From assembly GCA_000091205.1 (NCBI GenBank), contig AP006500.2: DNA of 64,000 nucleotides; one strand, 5' to 3'. The notes beneath the pieces were generated by a model. That model made no database searches and was not told the origin of the DNA. It was given only the letters and a program-made list of their open reading frames with translations. A program made the position numbers and the translations under genes. The stretch comes from Cyanidioschyzon merolae (taxonomy: Eukaryota). Below, piece by piece: positions 6,609 through 25,846 of this stretch (its first letter is position 1; the number at the start of each line of letters is the position of its first letter).

Positions 6609-8492
6609 ATGAGCAACCCGAACAGGAGCTCGACGCTGGGAGGCGCGAGACAGGGAGGCGGCTTAGACTCGAGTCGCCGCCGGGGAAACAACGCAGTTCG
6701 TGGCGGGTCTCAGAACGTTGCTTCTGCTGTTGGTGCACAGCGCAGCGGAAGCACCACTGAGTCCGCTCGAGTTGTTGCTGATTCTTCGGAAGCGAGCTCG
6801 GAACCGGCACCGTTCGTGGGCGCACACCAACCAACAGAAGCGCCCAAGCGAGACTCGGAGGCGGGTACTGCTGACGAGGCACGTCGGGCAGCTTCCGCGA
6901 ATGCTGCGACGATGGCTTCACCCGACGATTTGGCAAGAGATATGGAAATGGCGCGCATCAACACGATATCACTGAAACGTGTGGAGTCTGAACCGGAGGT
7001 GGCGCCGCTAAAGCTCATGGACCAGCTCATTTTCAGCACCGAGGACGGTTACCGGCAGGCGGAACTGGAGCTTCTCGCGAGCGGCCGCTCGACCGGCGAA
7101 GCAGCTGAAAGTCCAATAACGCTACCTGACGTGCAGGCGGGTTCTTTTGGGGAGCGCCCCATGGACAAGGCTCGGGACGCCGTCTCCGAAACACCGACGG
7201 AGGCGCAGAGCTACCTGCGCGAAGAGGCTGCTGTTAGCCCGCGCACATCCAGTTCCGAACGAGAACGGGAGGAAAGCAACTGTGGACCGAAATGTCCCAA
7301 ACGCTACAGAATTGCACTGTTTGCATGGGAGTCGCTCTACTCGGTTGCGGTAGGCGGTGTTGCGCCGCACGTCACCGAACTCGCAGCAGGCCTAGAGCGT
7401 CGCGGCCACGAAGTTCACGTTTTCGTGAGGTCGGGTGCTGGCCAGGCCCCCTATGAGCGAATTGACGGTGTATACGTGCATCGTTGCAGCTTCGACTTGT
7501 CCCCGGACTTTGTGAAAGAGTGTGAGAATATGTGCAACTCATTTATGCACGCGATGTACGAAGTGGAGTGTTTCATGAATGCTCATTTCGATGTTATTCA
7601 CTGCCATGACTGGCTCACGGGGTTCGCTCTGACCAACGCGAAGCACATCCTTGGACGGCCTGTCTGCATATTCACCATCCATTCTACGGAGTATGGGCGT
7701 AGCGGCAATAATCACTACGGTGGCCAGTCGGCTCGTATTCGCGATATTGAGCAGGCCGCAATATCTGCCGCCGATCGTATTATCTGCGTCAGCGGTGTGC
7801 TTTGCGATGAGGTCAAAGCGGTATACTCTTTTGACTGGAACAAACTGCGCTGTGTCCACAATGGTATTAATGCGCTGCGTTACGACGGGAATTTGTGGGA
7901 TCCCGGAGAAGTCCGCGCGCGCTACGCGGTGGGCCCCCTGGATCCAATGGTGCTCTTCGTTGGGCGTATGGCAGTCCAGAAAGGACCAGACCTGCTGGTT
8001 GAAGCCGCTCCCTTCATCTTGAAGGCCCGTAGCGACACCAAATTCGTGATGGTCGGCGACGGCTACATGAAACCATCACTCGAGGCTCGCTGTCATCAAC
8101 TTGGTGTGGCACACGCTTTCCGCTGGACCGGCACCATGGGCGGAGCACCGCTGGTTGAGGTCTTCAAAGCTTGCGACGTGGTCTGCGTGCCGAGTCGAAA
8201 TGAGCCGTTCGGGATCGTTGTTCTCGAGGCTTGGGCGAGTGGAAAACCTGTCGTCGTCACAAAGAACGGCGGACCACGGGAGTTTGTCACTCATGAAGTG
8301 GAAGGATACCAGATTGACACCAGTCCGGACTCCATAGCTTGGGGAATATGCAAGTGTTTCGAAAACTTCGATCATTCGAGGTTCATGGGCGAGCAGGGTC
8401 GCAAGAAAGCACAAAGGGAGTTTAGCTGGGATCGCATTGCGGAACTCACGAATAACGTCTACGATGAGTTGTTGCTCACACGCCCGTATTAA
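6609..8492 (+). CDS. GT4-family (group 1) glycosyltransferase with a long low-complexity N-terminal region
   Basis: A 627-aa ORF. The N-terminal Rossmann half reads RIALFAWESLYSVAVGGVAPHVTELAAGLERRGHEVHVF. The C-terminal half carries the EPFGIVVLEAWASGKPVVVTKNGGPREFV (E-x7-E) motif. It ends with TAA. Confidence 0.75.
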   Translation: MSNPNRSSTLGGARQGGGLDSSRRRGNNAVRGGSQNVASAVGAQRSGSTTESARVVADSSEASSEPAPFVGAHQPTEAPKRDSEAGTADEARRAASANAATMASPDDLARDMEMARINTISLKRVESEPEVAPLKLMDQLIFSTEDGYRQAELELLASGRSTGEAAESPITLPDVQAGSFGERPMDKARDAVSETPTEAQSYLREEAAVSPRTSSSEREREESNCGPKCPKRYRIALFAWESLYSVAVGGVAPHVTELAAGLERRGHEVHVFVRSGAGQAPYERIDGVYVHRCSFDLSPDFVKECENMCNSFMHAMYEVECFMNAHFDVIHCHDWLTGFALTNAKHILGRPVCIFTIHSTEYGRSGNNHYGGQSARIRDIEQAAISAADRIICVSGVLCDEVKAVYSFDWNKLRCVHNGINALRYDGNLWDPGEVRARYAVGPLDPMVLFVGRMAVQKGPDLLVEAAPFILKARSDTKFVMVGDGYMKPSLEARCHQLGVAHAFRWTGTMGGAPLVEVFKACDVVCVPSRNEPFGIVVLEAWASGKPVVVTKNGGPREFVTHEVEGYQIDTSPDSIAWGICKCFENFDHSRFMGEQGRKKAQREFSWDRIAELTNNVYDELLLTRPY

Positions 8493-11638: not shown

Positions 11639-13324
11639 TCAGGGTCTGCGGCAACCAGCGTCGCCGGCATCCACCATTTTATAGGGATTAAGGATACCCT
11701 TCGGATCCAGGAGCGCTTTGAAACGCCGCATGAGCTGTAGAACCTCTGGACGCTTACCCCGTTCAAGGAGGCGAGTTTTAAGCACCCCGATCCCATGCTC
11801 TGCACTCCCCGATCCGCCATGCTGCTGGACCACGTCGTATAGCCACGGCTCCAGCGTACTGCGCAGCATGTCCCGCGGGTGCTCGCTGGAAACGTTCAGA
11901 TGTAAATTGCCGTCGGCGACATGTCCCCAGCTAAAAGTCCTCGCATCGAGCTTGTGTTGACGCAATCGTTCGCGGACTGCCTCGACGGTTCCGTAGAACG
12001 ATGGAAGCGGCAAAGAGAGATCATACTTGAGGATACTAGGGCCGGATCGACGAACCAGTTCGGGTAGGGACTCGCGCAAGCCCCATAGGTGTGCACTCTG
12101 CGACAGGTCCTGGGCCATAATCACATCCACTCGCGGGTCGGCACGAGTCATGGCGTCGAGGTAGGTCTCGAGCGGCGACAACGCCCGATGCTCCGTATCA
12201 GCAGCGGTACCGCACTCGATCAGAACATAGAAAGCATGGCTCCCTTGCAGCGGGACCCCAAATCCATCCCCATGCGCCCGCAGGAGCGTCATCGCATCGT
12301 TGTCCATGAACTCAAAAGCGCACAAATGGGCATTCAATGAACGACGCGCTTCTCGGAGCCACCACCGCACCTGCTCGAAGGGTCCCGGGAGTCCTGCTAG
12401 GGCCACTTGTGTGCCTGTAGGTGCCGGCGAGCACGACAGCGTGGCCTTGGTAATGATGCCAAGCGTACCCTCCGCTCCGATAAAGAGATGCTTGAGATCG
12501 TAGCCGGTGTTGTCTTTGCGAACTTTCCTACCAACGCCGAGGTCCAGGATCGTGCCATCAGCGAGCACAGCCTCGAGGCCCAGCACAGTGCCGTGCAGGG
12601 AGCCGTAGCGAACGTATCGAGACCCACCCGCGTTGGTCGAGAGGTTGCCACCGATTTGGCAGCTGTCCTTGGCCCCGAGATCCAACGGAAAGCAGAATCC
12701 TCGTTCGCGGCAGTGCTGCTCGGCACGGCCCAGCGTGACGCCAGCTTCGACGGTAATCGTGCTGTGCTCTTCATCAAACTCAAGAATTCGGTTCATTCTC
12801 GAGAGTGAGAGGATAATCTCGTCAAATACAGGGACAGAGCCTCCCACGAGCCCAGTATTGCCGCCCTGCGGTGTTACAGCCAGGTTCCGTTCGTGGCAGT
12901 ACGCGAGGATGCTCGCAACGCCTGCAACCGTGGACGGCCGGAGACAAAGACTTGCGTTTCCATGAAACTCGCCCGTCCAGTCCGTGTTGTAGCTCCGCAA
13001 CTGGTCTGGACTCGTAATGGACACAGTAGCGGCTGTAGCAGGTGTCGTTGGTGGAGGTTGCGGCTCAGCAGAGCGCGCCAGCTCTACCAGTGTCGCGATA
13101 TCCTTCTCAGTGAGTTTCGCGTAGTTGCCCTGCAGTTCCCTGATAAATTTTGTTCCTGTGTTATGGGGCCTTCTGAACAGCCCAAACTGTCCAAAAGTGA
13201 GCGTCGTCCTCAGCACGTCCACCGGACTGGTGCTTCTGTTGCCGCCACCAAAAGTTCGAACCGGTCCTAAAGTAGGCTTGTCCAGCACGCTCCGGACACG
13301 GTGGAGCAGAAACTGCGTTAGCAT
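11639..13324 (-). CDS. FAD-linked oxidase, D-lactate dehydrogenase / D-2-hydroxyglutarate dehydrogenase family (mitochondrial type)
   Basis: A 561-aa ORF with an FAD-binding PCMH domain (VTPQGGNTGLVGGSVPVFDEIILSLSRMNRILEFD) and a C-terminal GGSGSAEHGIGVLK motif. The ATG was verified at 13322-13324. Confidence 0.8.
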   Translation of the reverse strand: MLTQFLLHRVRSVLDKPTLGPVRTFGGGNRSTSPVDVLRTTLTFGQFGLFRRPHNTGTKFIRELQGNYAKLTEKDIATLVELARSAEPQPPPTTPATAATVSITSPDQLRSYNTDWTGEFHGNASLCLRPSTVAGVASILAYCHERNLAVTPQGGNTGLVGGSVPVFDEIILSLSRMNRILEFDEEHSTITVEAGVTLGRAEQHCRERGFCFPLDLGAKDSCQIGGNLSTNAGGSRYVRYGSLHGTVLGLEAVLADGTILDLGVGRKVRKDNTGYDLKHLFIGAEGTLGIITKATLSCSPAPTGTQVALAGLPGPFEQVRWWLREARRSLNAHLCAFEFMDNDAMTLLRAHGDGFGVPLQGSHAFYVLIECGTAADTEHRALSPLETYLDAMTRADPRVDVIMAQDLSQSAHLWGLRESLPELVRRSGPSILKYDLSLPLPSFYGTVEAVRERLRQHKLDARTFSWGHVADGNLHLNVSSEHPRDMLRSTLEPWLYDVVQQHGGSGSAEHGIGVLKTRLLERGKRPEVLQLMRRFKALLDPKGILNPYKMVDAGDAGCRRP

Positions 13325-18052: not shown

Positions 18053-18979
18053 TTGGCTCAGTCTGCTCTTTTTACGACATTCCCTCGATACCTTCTACCG
18101 CATCATGACTTCAAGTCCGGTCTTGAATACCAGCAAACCGCCGATGCCTCGAAACGAAACTGGCATAGAGGCCGACTGCGAACGCCGACGGCCGGCCCCA
18201 ATGCCGCGCTGCGCTCGACTACCGGTTTGCATCGAGTGCCTGACTCGAGTACGCTTTCATGCGTCGCTCGGATCGAACGGTTCGGGAGCACGGGGTCTTC
18301 CATGGCTTTCATTGCTGGAACGCTCCCATTTGGTCGTGAAGTGCTGAATGCGGGCACTCAGACCTCCGCGGCTTGCTGGTGTCACTCGAGCGGTGACCGC
18401 TCGCGGTCGAGACGGAGCAGCGCACTAGTCGCTCGGTGCGCCGCCTCGGGGCAGACCTTCACGCGAAGGCGTTTCTGCCGAGACTTTGCCTTCGCTTCCC
18501 TGAGCCTGATTTCCGTTCTAGGAAGTTCACGCTGTCAGGTAGCGAGTGCAGCAACTGCGCCAGAGGCTGCACTCGTACAAGTCTGCAGGGCCTACGACGC
18601 GTTGGACGAGCTTGTGAGGCTCATCGAGCAGTCCCAAGACACTCGCAGCCTGCGCCAAACGATTCGCATCATCGTCAAGCAGAGCAACTTGAAGCAGAGT
18701 ATCAAGTCCGCCGCAAACGGCCGACTGCCAGCGGGACCTATTCGCGATGCCGCATTACGCGAAGGACTCGATGCTCTCGAGTACCTGAGTCAGGTGACCG
18801 CGTACTACAACCCCGTTTCAAAAGTGCCGACCCTCGAAATGCGTTCTTTTGCGATCGAGTCCGTGAAAGCTGCAAAGCAGCGTTTACAGGCGTATCTGGA
18901 TGCGTTCCCACCGGATGAAGTGGAGCGCGCCCGACGGACGGTTTTTGTTCAAGACGTTGCAGCGTACGAATCTATGTGA
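18053..18979 (+). CDS. Hypothetical protein (308-aa ORF, S/R-rich N-terminus)
   Basis: A long ORF with no recognisable motif. Its coding status rests on length only. Confidence 0.3.
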   Translation: MAQSALFTTFPRYLLPHHDFKSGLEYQQTADASKRNWHRGRLRTPTAGPNAALRSTTGLHRVPDSSTLSCVARIERFGSTGSSMAFIAGTLPFGREVLNAGTQTSAACWCHSSGDRSRSRRSSALVARCAASGQTFTRRRFCRDFAFASLSLISVLGSSRCQVASAATAPEAALVQVCRAYDALDELVRLIEQSQDTRSLRQTIRIIVKQSNLKQSIKSAANGRLPAGPIRDAALREGLDALEYLSQVTAYYNPVSKVPTLEMRSFAIESVKAAKQRLQAYLDAFPPDEVERARRTVFVQDVAAYESM

Positions 18980-20278
18980 GTGCATACTTGAGACGCTCGG
19001 AGGAAAGGTCGCAAAATTCCGTTGGTGCTTCAACATGAAGCTGAAGCGCTCGCGGCATAGCACATGGATGCATCTGACCTTTATCGAGCTTGCGCACATC
19101 CGGAAGGTCGCCAAAGTTGCACGGCGCTTCGAAATGAACCTGCAGGAGCCGCGGCTCATGAGACGCGAGTACCCATTCGACTCGAGACGTTTAATGTGGA
19201 TCTTGCCGGGCAAGCGCGTCTCCATATAATGCACGCGTCGATGCTCGGCCAGAGGACGCATCGGAAGTCGGACCCAGGGTCGCGCTTTGGAGCGATGGTC
19301 GCGCATTCGGCTGGACCCGTGGATGGAGCGCCCGTGGCGTTCGTATCCCAGTAACATGGATCATTGCATATGATCTATTGTGTGCACAAGTAGTCCACCA
19401 CCAAGATGCTCCCACGATCCGACACACGGTACAATAAGGCAGTCCGTGAGCACGCCGAATGCAGTGCTTCTCAAAAAGCATCGAACGATGTCATGGTGTC
19501 CACCGATAGTGAACACGACAATAACGCCCATGGACGGAACTCAACGACGCACGCTCGACATCTTTGTCGAACGCTGCTTCCGTGCATCCGACAGAGAAAA
19601 GCACACAACGCTAGTCTCGCCCAGTTGCTTCCTTTTGGCATTTCAGTCGATGGCAGCAGCGAAGCAAGCGGCAATACGCTCGCGCACACCCTCACGCGAT
19701 CATATGCTCCAACAGCGCTGGAGGCCTGCCCATGGTGCATAGTGCTCCCCTCGATCCATCTGTGCGTAATTCGAGACTCGCATAAACGCACGCACCAAAT
19801 TTGCCTACTATCGCCGATTCGTGACTGCAACAGCATCCACCATCCGAATCGGGAGCCTGACACGGTCGTCTCTGTTGCACACGTCGGAGGACACGTCGGT
19901 GCGCACGCACGCACGCACGCACCGGCACGCACCGGCACGCAGGCATCGATCTCGAGGCACGCGCACCGCACGCAGCAGGCGCAGGGCAATATAGTCATAG
20001 ACATAACAGCACACTAAGATCTATTATAGTATAATGCAGTACATCGCATCGCTATCCACAGATGCGCAACGGATGGTGCACCGATGCAGCGGCGCGCCGC
20101 CGTCGACGCGCAAGAGTGCCACGACACGCGTTTCTCACCCAACTCGGGTGGTGCTTTCGGTAGAGCACCAAATTTGGCCGCAGCAGCTGCGATCCAAAGC
20201 ACGCCCCGGCACCGCAGGTTGAGCCACGTGCGGATCGCCTTAGTACCTAGAAGTTTTTGTTTTTTGGACGAGGTATGG

Positions 20279-22891
20279 ATGAAGCCTAGCTTACCTCCTG
20301 TTCCGCTTGGAGCATGTGCAATAACGACGATGCGGCCGAGAAACCGAATACGAGCCCAGCTCGACCTTTGGAACGAAAGAGTCGGTGAATCGGGACTTTT
20401 TTTCTCTCTCCTAGTCGCGTACTGGTGTTCACAAGCGTGGTTCTTCGTGTACGGCGTTAAATATGCGCTTAGTCTGGCGCTTCCTTCCGATTGGTCTCGG
20501 TATATGCTGATCTTTGGCAGAGGTTTTGGATACGTGGCAACGTTCAACGCGTTGCTTCTTCCTATAACCGTGAACCGAACCCTGACCAATATCTTGTACA
20601 GGCTGCCTCTGTACGATATTTTTAGCGTAGCCCGATGGTTGCCGGACCTGCACGCAATCATCGCGCGCTGGTTCACAATCGCAGGCTGGATCCACGGCAT
20701 CCTGCTGAGTGTCGCTTACGGCGTTGGGACGCTTCCGTTCCGCGGCGGCTTCTTGCCCTTTTCGAATACGATCCCCACGACGATGGTTTTTGTAACCGGA
20801 TGTGCCCTGATGGCGTTTCTGCTAGCGATCGTGCTGCTCTCTCTGGGGAGCGTTCGTCGGCGAGTCTATCGCGTATTCTGGGCGAGTCATGTGCCGCTAG
20901 CGATTCTTACCTATGCGGCACTCGTTTTCCATGGTCTACGGGGCGGCCGCCTCTGGTCCGTCTATTTTTTTGGGTTGCCGGTCGTACTCTACATACTGGA
21001 TAGGCTGTATCACAGCTTTGCTGCTGCCTTCACGCCACATCGAGTTCTGTCTGTGGAGCTGTCGCATAAGAATTCGAATGTGGTTCGTCTTGTCCTGGAA
21101 CGCAGGGGTCGCAAGTTCGTTGCCGGCCAATACTTCAAACTGGCCTGGAAATTTCACGTTTGCTCGCACCTGGCTGTCGCCGGAGAATGGCATCCTTTCA
21201 CAGTGGCCAGTTCACCTTTGCTAGACAAAGATCGCATCATTTTTTTCATTGCCGCAACCGGGAAGTGGACGAATGCATTGCGAGCATTGGCTCTACAGCA
21301 ACACCAGCAACAGCATGACGAGAATCTCGAACACGCATCATCCACGAGTCCGACACCGAAATCCCTCGCTACTGAGGCAATGCCTCACGCTGTGGACAAG
21401 TCGAGCATAACGACGTGTTTGCCTATCAACCGCCGGTGGATTCTGCTTTCGGGGCCGTACGGCGCTCCTGCGCAGAGTCATCAGAACTTTGCGCACCAGC
21501 TGCTGATCGGCACTGGCGTTGGTGCCTCGCCAATGTTCTCCATCGTGCAGGAGCTCTGCGGTCGAGCGACGCCCTGCGACAACAACAACAACAAAGACGC
21601 AAGCCTAGAATGCAGCGATGTGTCCACCGGAGGTGACCTTGAGAACGGCACCCTTGCGTCGGTATCCGATACGACATCTCCGACGAGGGAAAGCACCGAC
21701 CTGCCCAACTTCGAAAAGCTGAAAGCGTCCACAACAGCGAACGATTCGAGCTCCGAAGTGGTTCCGAGCGTGCAGGCTCTGCCGCCGGTGCTAGCGGCAC
21801 GTCTGGGCACCCTGCGCGGTGACACTTTCCTGGATCGCTTCTCCGCTGCGGTGCTCAGTAATCTGTGGCTCTTCTCTATCCTGTGGATTTGTCTGGCCGA
21901 CCTGACCGTGTCCATCTGCGCGTCGGCGTTCAGTCACATTGTCGCATTCATTGGTAGCCTTGCTCTGTTCGTGGTCATCTTGACGATGATTTGTCTGACC
22001 GTGATTGCGGATATGAGGCTCAGCGTGAATCCGCCCCGCTGGCACTACGTTCTGCTGCTACGAGGCATCCTGCTGCTGTTGTGGTTTGCGGTGGCTCTCA
22101 CAAACGCAGTCCTCTGTAGCCTGCTTATCGTGGAGTACTTTCTGGCTTCCAACGATCGCATGGCGAGCATCAGCAAGTCAAGCGAATGGCTCTTCGTGAT
22201 GGTTGTGACCCCAGTGCACATTACGATTTTCGTGCTTCTGCTTTTCTTCTTCTTTCTACCGCGTTCATGGACCTGGCGCACGACGGTAACAGCGAAAGTT
22301 TTCCGTCGTTGCTTGCAAGGCTCCTGGGACCACCAGCAGCGTTCCAATAAAGTTGTGAGCGACGCTCGCAACGCGGAATGGAACGCTTTCTCTCACATTC
22401 GCACCGTAACGTTCGTCTGGGTAGTGCGCTACGTCGAAGACCTCTGGTTTCTCGAAAAGCTCTATGAACTCGCTTCTCAGCAGGATGCCAGTGATCCGTG
22501 TCGACCACGGTTACGAATTCATGTTCATATTACCCGACTTGGACACGACGACGCCGATCCGGTAAGCAGCAGACTCCCGGCGAATTGCGGCGAGATTCTC
22601 CAGTTCCATTGTGGTCGACCCGACTTTGGCGAATACGTCGCGGAATTGGTGAACGAGGACCACGACACCACGACACCGCTAGCCGGACGCGGGAAACCGG
22701 GCGCACCTGCAAGCATCAGACGCTTCCAACGCACGCGAGCCTTCTCGAACAAAGTGCATCATGGCATCTTCTTTTGCGGCGGCAGGTCTGTTGTCCGCAG
22801 CGTGCACCAGAGCATTCGTGCGGTAGCAGCGGCACGGGCGGCTCGAGGTTTGCCTCAACGCAATGTGTTCTTCATGAAGGAGAACTTTTAA
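20279..22891 (+). CDS. NOX-type NADPH oxidase (ferric reductase superfamily) with a large hydrophobic insertion in the NADPH-binding domain
   Basis: It has heme-binding TM histidines. The FAD motif is HPFTVASSP and the NADPH motif is LLIGTGVGASPMFSIVQEL. NOX signatures follow: RTVTFVWVVRYVEDLWFLEKL, then GIFFCGGRSVVRSV, ending FMKENF (NOX2 ends NKENF). About 280 aa with 4-6 predicted TM helices sit between the GxGxxP motif and the VxFxW motif. The ATG is at 20279. Confidence 0.75.
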   Translation: MKPSLPPVPLGACAITTMRPRNRIRAQLDLWNERVGESGLFFSLLVAYWCSQAWFFVYGVKYALSLALPSDWSRYMLIFGRGFGYVATFNALLLPITVNRTLTNILYRLPLYDIFSVARWLPDLHAIIARWFTIAGWIHGILLSVAYGVGTLPFRGGFLPFSNTIPTTMVFVTGCALMAFLLAIVLLSLGSVRRRVYRVFWASHVPLAILTYAALVFHGLRGGRLWSVYFFGLPVVLYILDRLYHSFAAAFTPHRVLSVELSHKNSNVVRLVLERRGRKFVAGQYFKLAWKFHVCSHLAVAGEWHPFTVASSPLLDKDRIIFFIAATGKWTNALRALALQQHQQQHDENLEHASSTSPTPKSLATEAMPHAVDKSSITTCLPINRRWILLSGPYGAPAQSHQNFAHQLLIGTGVGASPMFSIVQELCGRATPCDNNNNKDASLECSDVSTGGDLENGTLASVSDTTSPTRESTDLPNFEKLKASTTANDSSSEVVPSVQALPPVLAARLGTLRGDTFLDRFSAAVLSNLWLFSILWICLADLTVSICASAFSHIVAFIGSLALFVVILTMICLTVIADMRLSVNPPRWHYVLLLRGILLLLWFAVALTNAVLCSLLIVEYFLASNDRMASISKSSEWLFVMVVTPVHITIFVLLLFFFFLPRSWTWRTTVTAKVFRRCLQGSWDHQQRSNKVVSDARNAEWNAFSHIRTVTFVWVVRYVEDLWFLEKLYELASQQDASDPCRPRLRIHVHITRLGHDDADPVSSRLPANCGEILQFHCGRPDFGEYVAELVNEDHDTTTPLAGRGKPGAPASIRRFQRTRAFSNKVHHGIFFCGGRSVVRSVHQSIRAVAAARAARGLPQRNVFFMKENF

Positions 22892-24736: not shown

Positions 24737-25846
24737 TCACGCTCGCGATCTCGTTGCAAGCAGTAGCGCACGAATATGGCGTGCACAAATGAGAATACCG
24801 AAACGTCCCAGGTCAGTATCTGCCTTGTGTGAAGAGGACCACTTGCATCGACCTTCGAGGATGCCGATCAAGCGAGGATCCGCATCTTCTGCGTTCGCCG
24901 CTGCCTTCGAGCTCAATGTTGACACCTCTACCACCGGGGCACCGCAAAGTCCCCATTCCAGACGCTCGTTGCTCTCGATCATATGCCGACCTGCACAGGC
25001 TTCGCCCAAATGTGTTGAAATCCGCAAGCTCGGGTGTAAATCACAGAGCACCGCGCGCCTCTCTGTATAATAGAGCGCCGCCTTCCCGAAGGCATCGAGT
25101 TCTTCGGGCCCTTGACCCTGCGACTGCTCCCAGCCACTCAGCTGGACTTGAACGCCAGGGGCCGGCGATGCGCACTGCTCCGTTGAAATCCTCATTCCAT
25201 AGGAATGGGGTTCGGCCCCGAGACTAGCGATCATCGCTTGTGGATCTCGGATGCGGAGCATCGCAACGTCATGACCCGCGGGATGGAACACCACCATCGA
25301 TGGATCCCCCGGAGCATGCTCGCGTGGCAGCTGTAAGTCCGCCGACGTCCGTTGATGTGTCGCCATTACCAACACCTCCACCGGCGCTATCGAGGGTGCC
25401 CCAGCGATGCCACTCTGATGCGCACCCGCTGACGTAGCCGGGACGCACGTACTGCTAGGCAACAAGTGCGTGTTCCGAATGCGCAAAGATGCGTCCGCGT
25501 CCTCCAGTGCTGCTGGAACGTCTCGATCCAGGGTAGCGCCACCCGGCCCGATACGATGAACGGGCCACGCGAGCCGTAACGCACCGTCCAGCGTACGAAA
25601 CTCTAGCACATGTCGGCAGTCGATGTCGCGGACGTATTGCAGCCAGCCTTGGGGGAAGTAGTGTCGAAAGCGTTGTGGCGCCGCGACATGAGCTGATACA
25701 ACAGCGTGCGCGAAGCTCGCGCCTTCACTGTCGCCATGTACAAAACAGCCCGAGCCGCGGGCGAGTAGTTCGAAGCTGGACATGCCGAGACGTGCGCTTC
25801 GGAACCACGAAGCGTACGACAGTACTGATGCGAGCTGCTTGGCCAT
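24737..25846 (-). CDS. Hypothetical protein (369 aa)
   Basis: A long ORF. The only motif noticed is WGLCGAPVVEV near the C-terminus. Confidence 0.3.
   Translation of the reverse strand: MAKQLASVLSYASWFRSARLGMSSFELLARGSGCFVHGDSEGASFAHAVVSAHVAAPQRFRHYFPQGWLQYVRDIDCRHVLEFRTLDGALRLAWPVHRIGPGGATLDRDVPAALEDADASLRIRNTHLLPSSTCVPATSAGAHQSGIAGAPSIAPVEVLVMATHQRTSADLQLPREHAPGDPSMVVFHPAGHDVAMLRIRDPQAMIASLGAEPHSYGMRISTEQCASPAPGVQVQLSGWEQSQGQGPEELDAFGKAALYYTERRAVLCDLHPSLRISTHLGEACAGRHMIESNERLEWGLCGAPVVEVSTLSSKAAANAEDADPRLIGILEGRCKWSSSHKADTDLGRFGILICARHIRALLLATRSRA

Follow-up and report, generated by a model that had tools for sequence, protein, structure and literature searches.

A conserved, predicted four-helix membrane insert in the NADPH-binding domain of a red-algal NoxD flavocytochrome from Cyanidioschyzon merolae

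How does an NADPH oxidase (NOX) come to carry several hydrophobic helices inside its cytosolic NADPH-binding domain, and is such an insert a genuine part of the protein? The question is raised by a gene on contig AP006500.2 of the red alga Cyanidioschyzon merolae (assembly GCA_000091205.1), of which we analyzed a stretch of 64,000 nucleotides, hereafter the window. Within the window the gene forms a single unbroken open reading frame (ORF), whose product of 935 amino acids (aa) is an exact match to BAM82551.1, XP_005538587.1 and UniProt M1UWF8 of C. merolae 10D. The record of XP_005538587.1 is titled 'similar to respiratory burst oxidase protein [Cyanidioschyzon merolae strain 10D]', and the same accession is given as one of two C. 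merolae RBOH genes in Table 4 of PMC6972535, the other being XP_005535894.1, which is located outside the window. We find that the protein is a member of the red-algal NoxD ('preNOX') class, and that the four-helix block of its insert is conserved to the same degree as the catalytic heme domain.

Domain architecture and anatomy of the insert

Consistent with the initial annotation of the locus, which had described a NOX-type flavocytochrome with its canonical elements in order, three Pfam domains follow one another in the canonical NOX/FRE arrangement: Ferric_reduct (residues 176-278, E=1.7e-8), FAD_binding_8 (321-462, E=4.5e-11) and NAD_binding_6 (771-862, E=1.1e-5), all of which exceed their gathering scores. 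The histidine pairs that ligate the two hemes, His190/His204 and His269/His283 in the third and fifth transmembrane helices (TM3 and TM5), are invariant among the Cyanidiales proteins, a paralog described below, a plant RBOH, and NoxD-like and FRE-like proteins. All of the motifs quoted at the outset are present, among them HPFT, GTGVGASP, VTFVWVVRYVEDLWF (residues 775-789), CGG at 898-900 and FMKENF at 930-935, which ends on the terminal Phe935; the strand VTFVWVVR also lies in the part of the NADPH domain that follows the insert. By domain order, heme histidine pairs and FAD/NADPH motifs, the protein belongs to the NOX/FRE flavocytochrome superfamily. A Pfam scan of the 935-aa protein found no EF-hand family at E<=0.1. 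The top sequence matches in the Protein Data Bank (PDB) were NOX5 (E=7.8e-15), DUOX1 and NOX2. NOX5 aligns in two pieces, query residues 237-494 with NOX5 323-560 and query residues 857-904 with NOX5 654-700, and therefore ~270 residues of the query are without a counterpart. A second variable element, a Q/H-rich loop, was noted at residues 405-449 (21296-21430), within the span of the FAD-binding domain, where it separates the FAD-binding core from the NADPH domain. This loop is only 15-22% identical to its orthologs and resembles the variable FAD-NADPH insertion reported for NOX5 (PMC1940245).

Between the GxGxxP proline and the beta-2 motif lie 291-292 residues, compared with 37 in a plant RBOH, giving a net insert of ~255-270 aa; the ~280 residues proposed initially were a fair estimate. 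A Kyte-Doolittle scan (19-residue window, threshold 1.6) revealed exactly four hydrophobic segments in this gap (helices A to D, Table 1), and the secondary structure modeled by AlphaFold2 (AF2) from a 9-sequence alignment contains four long helices that coincide with them. The four helices named in the initial annotation are thus confirmed, while its wider range of four to six narrows to four. In the model, Rossmann strands flank the insert (E406-412 and E709-716, numbered on the 870-residue protein), and the strands and helices of residues 771-935 have predicted local distance difference test (pLDDT) scores of 60-84; these Rossmann elements and the secondary structure are the usable parts of the model. 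A Foldseek search with the model matched DUOX1, NOX2 and the dehydrogenase (DH) domain of NOX5, at TM-scores of ~0.2.

The helices are flanked by two linkers, of which the N/S/T/D-rich first one is probably disordered and the second is basic, with five Lys or Arg and no Asp or Glu among residues 726-746. The N-terminal flank has 3 Lys or Arg residues, the B-C loop has 2 and the C-terminal flank has 5, and all three are predicted to face inward. The predicted outer loops, which have a net negative charge, have 0 (A-B) and 2 (C-D). This distribution fits an in-out-in-out-in topology of the four predicted helices.

Conservation, coding status and relatives of the insert

The four-helix block is 83% identical to its counterpart in Cyanidiococcus and 63% identical to that of a Cyanidium-like alga, with no gaps. 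The corresponding values are 84% and 67% for the heme domain and 63% and 48% for the C-terminal NADPH part. Poor conservation is confined, within the insert, to the flanking N/S/T-rich linkers that had been remarked on originally: linker 1 is 30% identical to Cyanidiococcus and 10% to the Cyanidium-like sequence, and linker 2 is 38% and 24% identical. Among the identical residues of the block, 58% in the comparison with Cyanidiococcus and 47% in that with the Cyanidium-like sequence are encoded by different codons. Because the amino acids are conserved while the codons differ, the block is translated and under purifying selection. The insert and the region encoding the heme transmembrane helices have equally strong negative AT skews, which is expected because hydrophobic codons are T-rich. 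The insert architecture recurs at 100% identity in three metagenome contigs, in the NCBI record of C. merolae 10D, and in Cyanidiococcus, Cyanidium and a 37%-identical paralog, with hot-spring metagenomes among the independent sources. Judged by these comparisons, the insert is coding sequence, neither an intron nor a misassembly, as had been argued from the continuous ORF.

The paralog, a NOX of Cyanidiococcus (KAF6000886.1), retains a four-helix insert at residues ~447-605. The block is recognizable in it (E=7e-17), and what the two inserts share is limited to motifs of the predicted cytosolic face (VLSNLWLF, NPPRWRY and FLPRSW). By our own count, 29 of the 40 columns invariant between the paralogs fall in residues 573-601, 638-661 and 724-729, on the predicted cytosolic face, and they form three motifs. 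The first, where helix A begins, reads R-x-x-A-x-VLSNLWLF; the second, LT-x-x-x-D-x(5)-NPPRW-x-Y-x(4)-RG, surrounds the B-C loop; and the third, FLPRSW, is found where helix D ends. The outer loops are not conserved. Three polar residues predicted to lie within the membrane (Asp606, Asn674 and His712) are kept in the orthologs and lost in the paralog, and we rejected residues for an extra heme or a proton path in the insert on this ground.

A phmmer search of 1.84 billion representatives with the insert alone gave three matches: the representative of the Cyanidium cluster, the Cyanidiococcus paralog and a 449-aa tandem-repeat protein (P0024), which was judged to be spurious. Further word-indexed homolog searches started from alignments added nothing to the five proteins recovered before. 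When the insert profile was compared with the PDB, nothing was found at E<0.4; the best match was GLUT7 (E=0.47), with no Hv1/voltage-sensor or cytochrome match. Nothing in Pfam was better than E=0.1, and hhalign gave a probability of 0.2% for human p22phox, the query sequence of which was checked against 7U8G_B and 8GZ3_A. A p22phox in cis was rejected as a sequence homolog.

Two more distant NoxD-like ORFs were observed in metagenomes, one of 1070 aa (L006/L007) and one of 1046 aa (L008). The cores of L006 and L008 are 25-29% identical to the C. merolae protein. In L006 the alpha1-beta2 loop, the site of the insert in C. merolae, has a gap of 265 residues that contains four hydrophobic helices, and inspection of the L008 sequence indicated a similar arrangement; both have N-terminal low-complexity extensions of >300 aa. 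The FRE-like proteins L009 and L010 are without an insert. The dissimilarity of the L006 and L008 inserts to that of C. merolae is as compatible with extreme divergence as with independent acquisition.

Proposed role and alternative explanations

Taken together, these results make it very probable that the gene encodes a NoxD/preNOX flavocytochrome with a translated and selected four-helix insert, to which we assign an inferred topology and docking role. By analogy with the family, cytosolic NADPH would reduce FAD, and the electrons would then cross the membrane by way of two b-type hemes, ligated by the two histidine pairs, to an acceptor on the far side, most likely O2, yielding superoxide. 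The ~270-aa insertion occupies the loop between alpha-1, which follows GxGxxP, and beta-2 of the NADPH lobe. It begins with a variable, floppy linker (~80 aa), continues with four predicted transmembrane helices that form two hairpins, and closes with a basic linker (~40 aa) that is likewise variable. Because an even number of helices returns both ends of the insert to the cytosol, the split NADPH lobe should still be able to fold. It is possible, though we put it forward tentatively, that the four helices share a membrane with the heme domain and serve to tether the NADPH lobe to the membrane face or to dock it there, perhaps packing on the heme domain. The two variable linkers would supply slack for positioning of the lobe, and the cytosolic-face motifs (VLSNLWLF, NPPRWxY and FLPRSW) would be where contacts with the dehydrogenase domain or with cytosolic loops of the heme domain form. 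Such docking would suit an enzyme without EF-hands in red algae, which appear to be without homologs of the phox-type regulatory subunits (PMC1940245).

Several observations weigh against this reading. No relative of the insert was detectable outside Cyanidiophyceae among the representatives searched with phmmer, and hhalign gave the insert profile a probability of only 0.1% against the L006 and L008 inserts, both profiles being very shallow. Membrane insertion of the four helices is predicted from hydropathy only. The AF2 model that the initial annotation had suggested does contain the four long helices, but its confidence (mean pLDDT 46, predicted TM-score (pTM) 0.33) is too low for helix packing to be read from it. 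The spacing of the TM5 histidines, 13 as in an FRE-like protein and not 12, may bear on whether O2 or Fe3+ is the acceptor.

The possibility that the insert is an artefact, either an unspliced in-frame intron or an error of assembly or annotation, draws only on a length that is unusual relative to animal NOX. The codon-level conservation of an ungapped block, the independent assemblies and the AT skew all speak against it, and on the first two of these grounds we rejected both an intron and a misassembly; C. merolae is also poor in introns, with reportedly only about two dozen intron-containing genes. We therefore regard an artefact as extremely improbable. A protein of the same architecture might instead be a ferric-chelate (metal) reductase for iron uptake, its insert corresponding to the extra C-terminal transmembrane helices of plant and protist FRE/FRO. 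The TM5 histidines are 13 residues apart (20888-20932), with a proline two residues past the first, and the same spacing is found in the paralog, the distant NoxD-like proteins and FRE-like L009. A spacing of 12, as in NOX2, NOX5, DUOX and RBOH, may be treated as a marker of NADPH oxidases that generate reactive oxygen species (ROS), although it is no curated rule; a plant RBOH has it, NOX5 and DUOX1 require a one-residue gap in the alignment with the C. merolae protein, and the C. merolae protein departs from it. The longer spacing fits a basal position, and it may bear on O2 versus Fe3+ as the acceptor of NoxD. Leu208 stands at +4 from His204, so that there is no His at the equivalent of NOX2 His-119, which is typical of NOX, and plant and stramenopile FRE have additional transmembrane helices within the NADPH-binding domain (PMC3591440). 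On the other side, Thr238-Gly239 aligns with the Thr-Gly of NOX5 and does not vary in an alignment with a plant RBOH among its members (we inferred the mapping of Leu208 and of this dipeptide onto His-119 and Thr-178/Gly-179 of NOX2). Zhang et al. take this dipeptide as indicative of ROS producers and rhodophyte preNOX as likely to generate ROS (PMC3591440). The best-scoring relatives of solved structure are all NOX or DUOX, and a Chondrus homolog is tied to oxidative-burst conditions by Hervé et al. 2006, as cited in PMC3591440 and PMC1940245. A ferric reductase thus appears unlikely.

We also weighed whether the four-helix block does more than anchor and has a separate function, as an in-cis partner resembling p22phox, a charge-compensating path for protons or ions, or an extra cofactor site. 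The block is conserved as strongly as the heme domain, a degree of constraint that seems excessive for a passive anchor, and its helix count equals that of p22phox, which has four transmembrane helices in the NOX2 structures 8GZ3 and 7U8G. The apparent lack of regulatory-subunit homologs in red algae points in the same direction. These points are countered by the negligible hhalign probability for p22phox and the null results from the PDB and Pfam, and the paralogs have no conserved His pair or charged residue within the membrane, making a separate function improbable in our view. A related idea, which we consider a long shot, is that the four-helix inserts of NoxD were gained, or wholly remodeled, independently in different lineages at the alpha1-beta2 loop, or that the block is the in-cis functional equivalent of a p22phox- or DUOXA-type partner and stabilizes the heme domain. 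If either were true, the nearly intron-free and genetically tractable C. merolae would offer a clean system in which to ask why NOX enzymes need accessory membrane helices.

Returning to the reading of a NoxD/preNOX enzyme with a docking insert, the gene was already annotated and its architecture was published as early as 2006, and the finding carries little weight as a discovery. Three points are added here: the constraint on the four-helix block, which equals that on the catalytic heme domain; the clustering of paralog-conserved residues on the cytosolic face; and the lack of detectable similarity of the block to p22phox or to the distant NoxD-like inserts. While these leave the classification unchanged, they frame a testable docking hypothesis.

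Gene model, neighboring genes and comparison with known systems

The positions of all features are collected in Table 1. Translation probably starts at 20279 (Met66), the start taken in the initial annotation, and not at 20084. ORF residues 1-65 (20084-20278), the N-terminus of the RefSeq model, are without conservation in the orthologs, which begin at the equivalent of Met66, and the Cyanidiococcus gene has a stop one codon ahead of that Met. Gene calls of 870 aa occur in the same 90% cluster as the C. merolae protein. With Met66 as the start, ~35 residues would precede the conserved region.

Table 1. Features of the C. merolae NoxD gene (positions in the window) and the ORFs of two distant metagenomic relatives (positions in their own contigs)
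Feature	Residues	Position	Strand	Remarks
CDS as annotated	1-935	20084..22891	+	935 aa plus stop; identical to BAM82551.1/XP_005538587.1
Met66, probable true start	66	20279..20281	+	orthologs begin at its equivalent
Six-helix ferric-reductase/NOX heme domain	~100-300	20381..20983	+	Pfam PF01794
Heme-ligand codons	His190; His204; His269; His283	20651-20653; 20693-20695; 20888-20890; 20930-20932	+	
FAD-binding domain	321-462	21044..21469	+	Pfam PF08022; NOX5 alignment
HPFT	370-373	21191-21202	+	inside FAD-binding domain
First NADPH-binding sub-region, GTGVGASP	476-483	21509..21532	+	motif
Insert linker 1	494-572	21563..21799	+	N/S/T/D-rich; gapped in alignment; pLDDT 24-36
Conserved four-helix block, predicted membrane	573-731	21800..22276	+	ungapped
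Insert helix A	~586-612	21839..21919	+	VLSNLWLF conserved at its cytosolic end
Insert helix B	~618-642	21935..22009	+	hydropathy, AF2
Insert helix C	~656-683	22049..22132	+	preceded by NPPRWxY...RG (649-661), conserved cytosolic loop motif
Insert helix D	~702-725	22187..22258	+	conserved FLPRSW (724-729) at its end
Insert linker 2	732-770	22277..22393	+	basic
Rest of Rossmann-type NADPH-binding domain	771-935	22394..22888	+	Pfam PF08030; NOX5 stretch 857-904
L006 ORF		415-3627		metagenome contig Ga0307981_1003878
L008 ORF		89-3229		metagenome contig Ga0073978_1600679

Upstream of the gene lie a GT4-family glycosyltransferase (6609-8492, +) and a FAD-linked oxidase (FAD_binding_4/FAD-oxidase_C; 11639-13324, -). 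The Cyanidium-like contig L002 has both in the same order, and the oxidase recurs in Cyanidiococcus L001; because the same neighbors recur, synteny of the NOX locus is conserved. The two flanking ORFs, 18053-18979 (+, 308 aa) and 24737-25846 (-, 369 aa), are putative and have no Pfam match at E<=1e-5.

The insert had been called architecturally unusual, which holds relative to animal NOX. It is nevertheless no discovery, because publications on red-algal NoxD/preNOX give this arrangement as a hallmark and name C. merolae as one of the species. Four extra transmembrane helices between the NADPH-binding sub-regions are attributed to Hervé et al. 2006 for NOX of Chondrus, Porphyra, C. merolae and a diatom (PMC5016757, PMC1940245, PMC3591440), and the legend of Fig. 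2 in PMC5016757 describes this architecture with C. merolae included. Kawahara et al. 2007 named the class NoxD and placed the helices 'between the 1st and 2nd NADPH-binding sub-regions', their function being unknown (PMC1940245). Zhang et al. 2013 reported the same feature in a 'preNOX' group of Rhodophyta, stramenopiles and Viridiplantae (PMC3591440). Elsewhere the extra helices are 'predicted to function only as an anchor to the membrane' (PMC9524095). The C. merolae protein has the four predicted extra helices after GxGxxP, no detected EF-hand and a red-algal origin, as expected for NoxD, and it combines the missing His-119 equivalent with the retained Thr-Gly dipeptide, as expected for preNOX. 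A literature search found no activity data (NADPH-dependent superoxide) for it, and the PDB searches run for the protein and the insert turned up no structure of a NoxD enzyme.

Compared with the red-algal NoxD proteins of Chondrus crispus (Ccrboh, AAZ73480.1) and Porphyra yezoensis (ABA18724.1), as known from published descriptions, we see no architectural difference: the six-helix bis-heme domain, the absence of EF-hands and the four extra transmembrane helices are shared. The sequences of Cyanidiophyceae and other NoxD inserts would nonetheless be very divergent, because the insert-only search found no outside relative. With preNOX the protein shares the four extra helices, the lack of a His-119 equivalent, the Thr-Gly of TM4 and the absence of a Ca2+-binding domain. 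In contrast to the preNOX account (PMC3591440), the C. merolae helices sit past GxGxxP, inside the NADPH-binding domain, in agreement with Kawahara et al. and Hervé et al. The stramenopile or raphidophyte and metagenomic NOX with ~10-11 transmembrane helices, represented by the 11-helix raphidophyte genes (Chattonella antiqua, PMC6685483) and by L006 and L008, are alike in their four helices, ~265-aa gap, position at the alpha1-beta2 loop and TM5 spacing. L006 and L008 differ in their low core identity, in inserts without detectable similarity and in the long N-terminal extensions, which are absent from the C. merolae protein.

Plant and protist FRO/ppFRE belong to the same superfamily and also have membrane helices inside the cytosolic dehydrogenase region, and the FRE-like L009 shares the TM5 spacing; they differ in that the literature places the C. 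merolae protein with NOX and that the NOX-type Thr-Gly is present in it. In the NOX2-p22phox and DUOX-DUOXA complexes, the six-helix heme domain is joined by further transmembrane helices that are needed for stability. It is this analogy that leads us to the docking or partner hypothesis. While the extra helices of those complexes belong to separate subunits, the C. merolae insert is part of the same chain and shows no detectable sequence similarity to p22phox or to any chain in the PDB.

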